From the IMG/VR virus record IMGVR_UViG_2548876963_000010: DNA of 35,198 nucleotides; one strand, given 5' to 3'. A program made the position numbers and the translations under genes. Positions 25,137-25,173 of the stretch are shown here, in pieces; position 1 is the stretch's first letter; each line of letters starts with the position of its first letter. The notes beneath the pieces were generated by a model. The model worked only from the letters and a program-made list of their open reading frames with translations, was not told where the DNA came from and did no database searches. The stretch is from a virus (taxonomy: Duplodnaviria > Heunggongvirae > Uroviricota > Caudoviricetes).

Positions 25137-25173
25137 GCTTCCGCTTGTAACTGAGGGCAGTACAAGCGGAAGC
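25137..25173. promoter_or_regulatory. Late-promoter-like dyad upstream of X (13-bp perfect inverted repeat, TGT-N13-ACA)
   Basis: GCTTCCGCTTGTA-actgagggcag-TACAAGCGGAAGC; TGT 25146-25148, ACA 25162-25164. Confidence 0.55.

Follow-up and report, generated by a model that had tools for sequence, protein, structure and literature searches.

The textbook phage P2 has four late promoters, and its operon plan is fixed. As the original prediction for this locus stated, and as the P2 RefSeq record lists them, X, Y, K, R and S belong there to the O operon. The DNA analysed here is a P2-like prophage that makes up a stretch of 35,198 nt (the window) and carries its late genes on the minus strand. In it, L and X are separated by a gap of 2.1 kb, and a long inverted repeat precedes X. 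This raises the question of how X and the lysis genes behind it are transcribed, and whether the repeat arrived with the DNA that now fills the gap. Our reading is that the repeat, P_X, is probably an additional Ogr-dependent late promoter, copied from P_F and heading X to S throughout a lineage, rather than a product of the acquisition of this particular cargo. The landmarks of the window are the following:

30426-33187, plus strand: P (terminase large subunit) and Q
29443-30270, minus strand: O, followed in order by N, M and L
27211-27810, minus strand: L, head completion gene and last canonical gene of the shortened O operon (Pfam PF05926, GPL, E=6e-45)
24868-25071, minus strand: X, tail gene of 67 aa (Pfam PF05489, Phage_tail_X, E=2e-17)
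4572-4820, minus strand: Ogr/Delta-family zinc-finger activator gene, 82 aa, CX2CX22CX4C (Pfam PF04606, E=1e-19)

On the minus strand, X is followed at its 3' side by two holins, a muramidase, lysB/C, R, S, a HicA/HicB pair, V onward and FI, whose ATG is at 15024. Proteins identical to X, orf106 and orf68 (the latter two from the L-X gap) occur in many E. coli assemblies, and close variants are named from Salmonella, Edwardsiella anguillarum, Serratia symbiotica, Citrobacter and Klebsiella. Among sequenced phages, megablast with 24400-27200 gave zero matches and distant blastn found similarity confined to the endolysin; thus, there was no annotated close phage for comparison. The early region (window 1-5464) is unlike that of P2 and holds an integrase, an AlpA-like gene and an 884-aa protein (1829-4483, minus strand) that is primase-helicase-like by eye. 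The Ogr gene, to which the Pfam search of this region was confined, lies directly upstream of the 884-aa gene on the same strand, and it is adjoined by a small ribbon-helix-helix-like gene and a divergent HTH repressor-like gene.

The dyad upstream of X and its likeness to P_F

A single inverted repeat was detected in 25000-25300, at exactly the coordinates originally predicted, and it is perfect rather than near-perfect. Its arms, GCTTCCGCTTGTA (25137-25149) and TACAAGCGGAAGC (25161-25173), are 13 nt long and 100% complementary. The centre lies 84 nt upstream of the ATG of X, and the nearer arm ends 65 nt away from it. When the spaced core TTGTA-N11-TACAA was searched for with at most one mismatch, four copies were found in the window, all of them exact, against a shuffle mean of 0.68; 0 of 100 shuffles reached four. 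These copies stand at the heads of late operons and nowhere else in the window:

25137-25173, minus strand: P_X dyad, perfect 13-bp arms, 11-nt spacer, core CTTGTA-N11-TACAAG, centre 25155 (core copy at 25145-25165)
15088-15124, minus strand: P_F dyad upstream of the tail-sheath gene FI (core 15096-15116), arms 15088-15100 and 15112-15124
21434-21454, minus strand: P_V dyad core upstream of V, preceded by a terminator-like hairpin and T-run
30344-30364, no strand assigned: dyad core shared between divergent O (minus) and P (plus), laid out as the annotated P2 site

The set is therefore the P2 layout with one extra site, as had been predicted; the annotated activator sites of the P2 record are those of pO/pP, pV and pF and no others, and in P2 and 186 L and X overlap and leave no intergenic site. 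The full 13-nt arm, searched with up to three mismatches, is not enriched (15 matches against 10.6 expected). The arms of P_X and P_F extend over 13 bp, compared with a symmetry of 6 bp at P_V and 8 bp at P_O. The P_F sites of an outgroup described below also have extended outer-arm symmetry, but of a different kind. As to their surroundings, the P_F and P_X dyads start about 6-12 nt past the stop of the preceding gene, which reads in the same direction; P_V is preceded instead by a separate canonical terminator, and P_O lies between divergent genes.

When the five promoters of the window are aligned on the dyad centre, an nAnnnT hexamer starts 43-45 nt downstream in every case (CACCAT at P_X and P_F, AATGAT at P_V, GACCAT at P_O and TACGCT at P_P). 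The assignment of the repeat to the late-promoter type is thus borne out, both by the core that it has in common with three other late-operon heads and by the similar spacing of the -10-like hexamer. CACCAT is a weak -10 match (3/6), and at both P_X and P_F it is preceded by TGn, which gives the extended -10 form:

25105-25113, minus strand: putative extended -10 of P_X, TGcCACCAT, within the CTGTGCCACCATC box, hexamer starting 45 nt from the dyad centre
15062-15057, minus strand: CACCAT hexamer of P_F

The predicted start site of P_X would lie near 25098-25100, about 56-57 nt from the dyad centre; the annotated P2 sites are centred 55-58 nt from mapped start sites. A sigma-70 scan called no promoter at the dyad and there is no recognisable -35, which fits an activator-dependent promoter that lacks this element. 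An activator of the Ogr/Delta family is encoded by the same element, and P_X lies on the same strand as, and upstream of, the late operon X/holins/endolysin/lysB/C/R/S. By our own count the half-sites of P_X are spaced as TGT-N13-ACA, whereas the published P2 consensus is TGT-N12-ACA (PMC3931495). The P_F site of P2 itself reads TGT-N12-CCA, and the N13 form is the commonest upstream of FI in the 25 other P2-like contigs checked; we treat the N13 spacing as a probable lineage variant and not as a contradiction of an Ogr-type site.

The following mechanism is proposed. The Ogr-family zinc-finger protein (4572-4820) would bind the CTTGTA-N11-TACAAG dyad, centred about 56-57 nt upstream of the start, and the bound activator would activate RNA polymerase at a weak core promoter with the extended -10 TGcCACCAT and no recognisable -35. 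The genes driven by P_X in this way would be X, both holins, the endolysin, lysB/C, R and S, and the P2-type O operon of the ancestor would be split into two units, namely O-N-M-L-orf91, ending at a terminator at 26825-26802, and X through S. The evidence for P_X is in silico and consists of its anatomy, over-representation, conservation, paralogy with P_F and phylogenetic distribution; from these we infer activator binding, the start site and dependence on Ogr.

The resemblance to the dyad upstream of FI, also part of the original prediction, is close and extends downstream of the repeat, making a promoter copy plausible. The P_F arms differ from those of P_X by one base each, and in alignment the two promoters are collinear from dyad to ATG, with dyad-ATG distances that are about equal. 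The blocks shared are CGCTTC(C/T)GCTTGTA, TACAAG(C/T)GGAAGCC, CTGTGCCACCATC and ACCTGA(C/T)G. Downstream of the arms the local match scores 26 against a null of 13.5 +/- 2.2 (0 of 500 shuffles). Promoter pairs were scored by local alignment against shuffles, as ungapped identity is misleading owing to a 1-nt indel, and P_X/P_F is the only one of the ten pairs with a significant downstream block (CTGTGCCACCATC). The two have different spacers and also differ in the 18-19 nt that separate the arm from the -10 box; CTGTGCCACCATC lies at the same distance. The P_F of outgroup genomes without P_X has the related TGTGCAACTATC...CATTTATT, and the -10 regions of P_V and P_O in these genomes are different. 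P_X of L031, a relative with the dyad, keeps a TTTATTACCTGATG stretch resembling P_F of the window. P_F is present in the outgroup, where P_X is absent, and the two drive different operons. Considering that P_X has its 13-bp arms and the CTGTGCCACCATC box in common with P_F only, and that the box occurs in P_F of relatives without P_X, it is likely that P_X is a copy of P_F. A single duplication and gene conversion between P_F and P_X would both fit, and the simplest reading would be a copy of P_F.

The L-X module and the interrupted O operon

If X is taken to read in the plus direction, the order of the region is L, orf91, a unit on the reverse strand (Arc-like orf56 with a variable gene downstream of it), orf68, orf106, the dyad and X. 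In the coordinates of the window it comprises:

26859-27134, minus strand: orf91, conserved module gene directly after L (homologues in L025, L026 and L006; phrog_331)
26825-26802, minus strand: intrinsic terminator-like hairpin and T-run after orf91, from the terminator scan; likely end of the O operon
25844-26769, plus strand: opposite-strand low-GC cassette of Arc-like orf56 (25844-26014) and variable-slot orf223 (26098-26769)
25850-25821, minus strand: sigma-70-like promoter upstream of orf68, TTGACA-18-TAGAAT, 11/12 matches, pointing toward X
25186-25702, minus strand: orf68 (weak Icd-like match) and orf106, conserved module genes reading toward the dyad

The canonical P2 O operon, with L and X contiguous and neither promoter nor terminator inside, is not what the window contains. 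The predicted interruption of the operon is indeed there, in the form of the terminator at 26825-26802 and the opposite-strand low-GC cassette, and the orf56-orf223 cassette converges on that terminator. With both in place, transcripts from P_O are unlikely to reach X, and thus P_X would be functionally needed.

Only the variable gene differs among relatives, and the flanking orf91, orf56 (Arc/YlcI-like), orf68 and orf106 are conserved. The slot is occupied by orf223 (GC 0.35-0.42, phrog_28203) in the window, by a Doc-like toxin pair in L025, L026, L006 and the E. coli locus L134, with an extra RelE/XRE-like pair in L006, and by an Rpn-like protein in L002. Unrelated cargo between conserved flanks marks the L-X region as an accessory-gene hotspot (moron site). 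Searches of the cargo proteins with Pfam, NCBIfam and PADLOC gave no confident function; PHROGs returned families of unknown function and the Arc-like match for orf56.

Two further observations concern small elements in and near this region. On the plus strand, 25697-25768 matches the SymR antitoxin RNA of Rfam below threshold (34.9 bits, gathering threshold 61, E=1.4e-4). This stretch lies antisense to the beginning of orf68 and its 5' leader; the Icd-like match of orf68 itself scores 24.1 against a cutoff of 25 bits. About 45 nt of the leader were also found in 20 further complete E. coli genomes, in one case next to a gene annotated as Icd-like. The stretch may encode a cis-antisense RNA that controls orf68-orf106. 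At gathering thresholds Rfam gave no matches in the whole window, and the dyad matches no RNA family. The HicA/HicB toxin-antitoxin pair (21495-22090, minus strand) lies between S and V, with the terminator-like hairpin and the P_V dyad directly downstream of it. In P2, orf30 occupies this position, and L031 has a RelE-like pair there.

Distribution among relatives and the origin of P_X

A dyad located 100-101 nt upstream of X was found in L001, L002, L005-L009, L022-L026, L031 and one annotated E. coli chromosome. Of these, L005, L022 and L023 are the same as the window, L002 and L009 belong to an Erwinia MAG, and X of L031 is 79% identical. Across relatives that are 79-100% identical in X, the dyad is kept in position and sequence while the flanks diverge, and it is present in each close relative examined, whatever fills the variable slot. 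By this distribution, the putative promoter is fixed across a P2-like prophage lineage (E. coli, Salmonella, Edwardsiella, Erwinia and others), and P_X marks the downstream edge of the L-X accessory module.

Three loci of the Edwardsiella ictaluri type (L001, L007 and L008; X 88% identical) lack the insert altogether: the L stop is followed by 7 nt, the identical dyad and X. The original prediction had tied the dyad to the acquisition of the present cargo and had named the L-X regions of related prophages as the place to check this, a dyad in relatives without an insert being the outcome that would speak against the tie. The comparison gives just that outcome in these three loci. The promoter type, the extra status, the likeness to P_F and the broken operon hold up, whereas the link to the acquisition of this cargo does not.

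In 11 outgroup loci (X about 67-70% identical), L overlaps X (TTTAATG), and there is neither a dyad upstream of X nor a module. Dyads of the same form stand upstream of V in 11/11 of them, and upstream of O and FI in the four to seven that extend far enough; L027, a full-length example, has a holin/holin/muramidase lysis cassette as in the window. P2, 186, phiCTX and the Mannheimia and Shewanella phages likewise have no L-X dyad, with L and X abutting or overlapping, and in a tblastn survey the X match usually overlaps the L annotation. In a neighbour-joining tree of X+K+R+S+V, whose topology is indicative only as several internal nodes carry no bootstrap value, the E. ictaluri type without insert forms the sister group of the window group, and the module-bearing pair L002/L031 is more basal. 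The module is thus found in both deep branches of the clade, and in all ingroup members except the E. ictaluri type. Since the insert-less type is nested among module-bearing groups, the simplest reading of its missing insert is a secondary loss in which the promoter was kept. We had considered these loci as proof that the promoter preceded the cargo, and dropped this as too strong in view of the same nesting. The dyad and the module would both have arisen on the long branch leading to the clade, and either order is equally compatible with the distribution.

What, then, accounts for a perfect repeat at this place? It is hardly credible that the palindrome arose by chance or is a generic repeat without regulatory function, a reading for which the unenriched search with the full arm could be cited; the spaced core is strongly enriched and confined to operon heads, and the dyad is conserved while its flanks diverge. 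A main role as an RNA hairpin is also improbable; in this role the palindrome would be a terminator or 3'-end stabiliser for the L or orf106 transcripts, insulating the lysis genes without being a promoter. In favour of this role, the stem is a perfect 13 bp, the region folds at -33.7 kcal/mol with z = -5.6, it starts 12 nt past the orf106 stop and, in the insert-less relatives, 7 nt past the L stop, and a barrier would be useful because the strong sigma-70-like promoter of orf68-orf106 aims at the lysis genes. The dyad nevertheless falls short of a Rho-independent terminator, with an 11-nt loop, a CCUUCCCUUCAC tail that has no U-tract and no call in the terminator scan. A pure terminator would moreover leave unexplained why the same core, with a -10-like hexamer at the same distance, recurs at three other late-operon heads. 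The arm substitutions were also tried as evidence for a hairpin, as 4/5 of those seen among relatives or at P_F are compatible with G-U pairs on the sense strand; this was dropped, since 4/5 is not significant and there are zero compensatory double changes. A second role at the RNA level, in which the dyad hairpin limits read-through into the lysis genes, is speculative.

The remaining alternative accepts a promoter and explains its origin by compensation: the cargo between L and X broke the O operon, and a late promoter was duplicated or recruited to restore expression of X to S. At the level of the lineage, dyad and module do co-occur, with neither in the 11 outgroup loci, the dyad in all of the ingroup, and the module missing only where a secondary loss is the simplest explanation. 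The module terminates the O operon, and P_X resembles a copy of P_F. However, the identical dyad stands in three loci without an insert, and it is invariant while the genes in the slot are unrelated, which argues against any link to this cargo. The opposite order, with the promoter first creating a boundary that then tolerated cargo, is equally compatible; it matches orf30 in P2 and HicAB in the window, both situated just upstream of P_V, and the tree that bears on the order has several nodes without a bootstrap value. We therefore regard compensation as possible but somewhat doubtful, and as plausible only in the form of an ancient scenario, not of an event in this prophage. An additional late promoter copied from P_F and shared by the whole lineage remains the reading that we prefer.

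Relation to known phages and hotspots

The nearest class to P_X is that of the Ogr-dependent P2 late promoters P_P, P_O, P_V and P_F and their B-dependent counterparts in 186 (p12, pV and others). The window has in common with them a TGT...ACA dyad site about 55-58 nt upstream of the start (a predicted one in the window), a putative weak core promoter and an activator of the Ogr/Delta type, as well as a single site shared by divergent O and P and sites heading the V and FI operons. It differs in having a fourth site and a fifth promoter, which heads X, in the N13 instead of N12 spacing and in the 13-bp arms at P_X and P_F. In P2 and 186 there is no L-X site, and X belongs to the O operon (in 186, to the V operon). 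The class of element is already well known, and the gain from one more member is incremental for this reason. The extra copy before X, the split of the O operon and the L-X cargo module appear new relative to the literature searched, in which neither an L-X promoter, nor a split O operon, nor an L-X cargo module was found for P2-like phages or Edwardsiella prophages.

The known P2 hotspots lie at A-Q (old/tin), at G-FI (Z/fun) and between a tail gene and the repressor gene (bioRxiv 10.1101/2024.10.15.618418); another report describes a hotspot 'downstream of GpL' and equates it with the tail-gene hotspot (PMC13586616). The L-X slot is like the P2 hotspots in its toxin-antitoxin or defence-type cargo, its conserved flanks and its place at the border between operons, directly upstream of a late promoter; orf30 of P2 and HicAB of the window, both upstream of P_V, are comparable to the slot upstream of P_X. 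It is unlike them in being enclosed in a conserved scaffold of orf91, Arc-like orf56, orf68 and orf106. At the position of the third known P2 hotspot, between the tail gene D and the repressor-like gene, the window has three ORFs of 190, 382 and 421 aa (5505-8508, plus strand), on which PADLOC gave no hits.

We tentatively put forward, as a possibility that we would not yet favour, that a P_F copy of about 115 bp placed before X split the O operon, and that the resulting boundary became, or arose together with, an undescribed hotspot in several genera of Enterobacterales. If true, it would provide a concrete example of how the duplication of a promoter can give rise to a hotspot in the genome of a phage. 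This lineage indicates that the P2 operon plan can be rewired by copying one late promoter to another place. That the new operon boundary coincides with a slot for the exchange of toxin-antitoxin and accessory genes offers a testable link between promoter architecture and cargo tolerance. The extended 13-bp arms may in addition form a hairpin in the RNA and thereby protect the lysis genes from the constitutive promoter of the cargo. In annotating these prophages, it should not be taken for granted that X and the lysis genes are transcribed from the O promoter.

A second type of outgroup locus (L116-L118, L120, L124-L126, L128, L131 and L132) has X and no homologue of L or O in the upstream sequence available, which is often short. 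One of them, L118, carries a TTGTA-N11-TACAA dyad upstream of X, with X first in its transcription unit, as in the window. Unlike the window, the L118 dyad is 233 nt from X rather than about 100, its sequence is not P_F-like, and R follows X without lysis genes. Loci of this type may be head-less P2-type tail clusters (tailocin-like), in which X heads an operon of its own.
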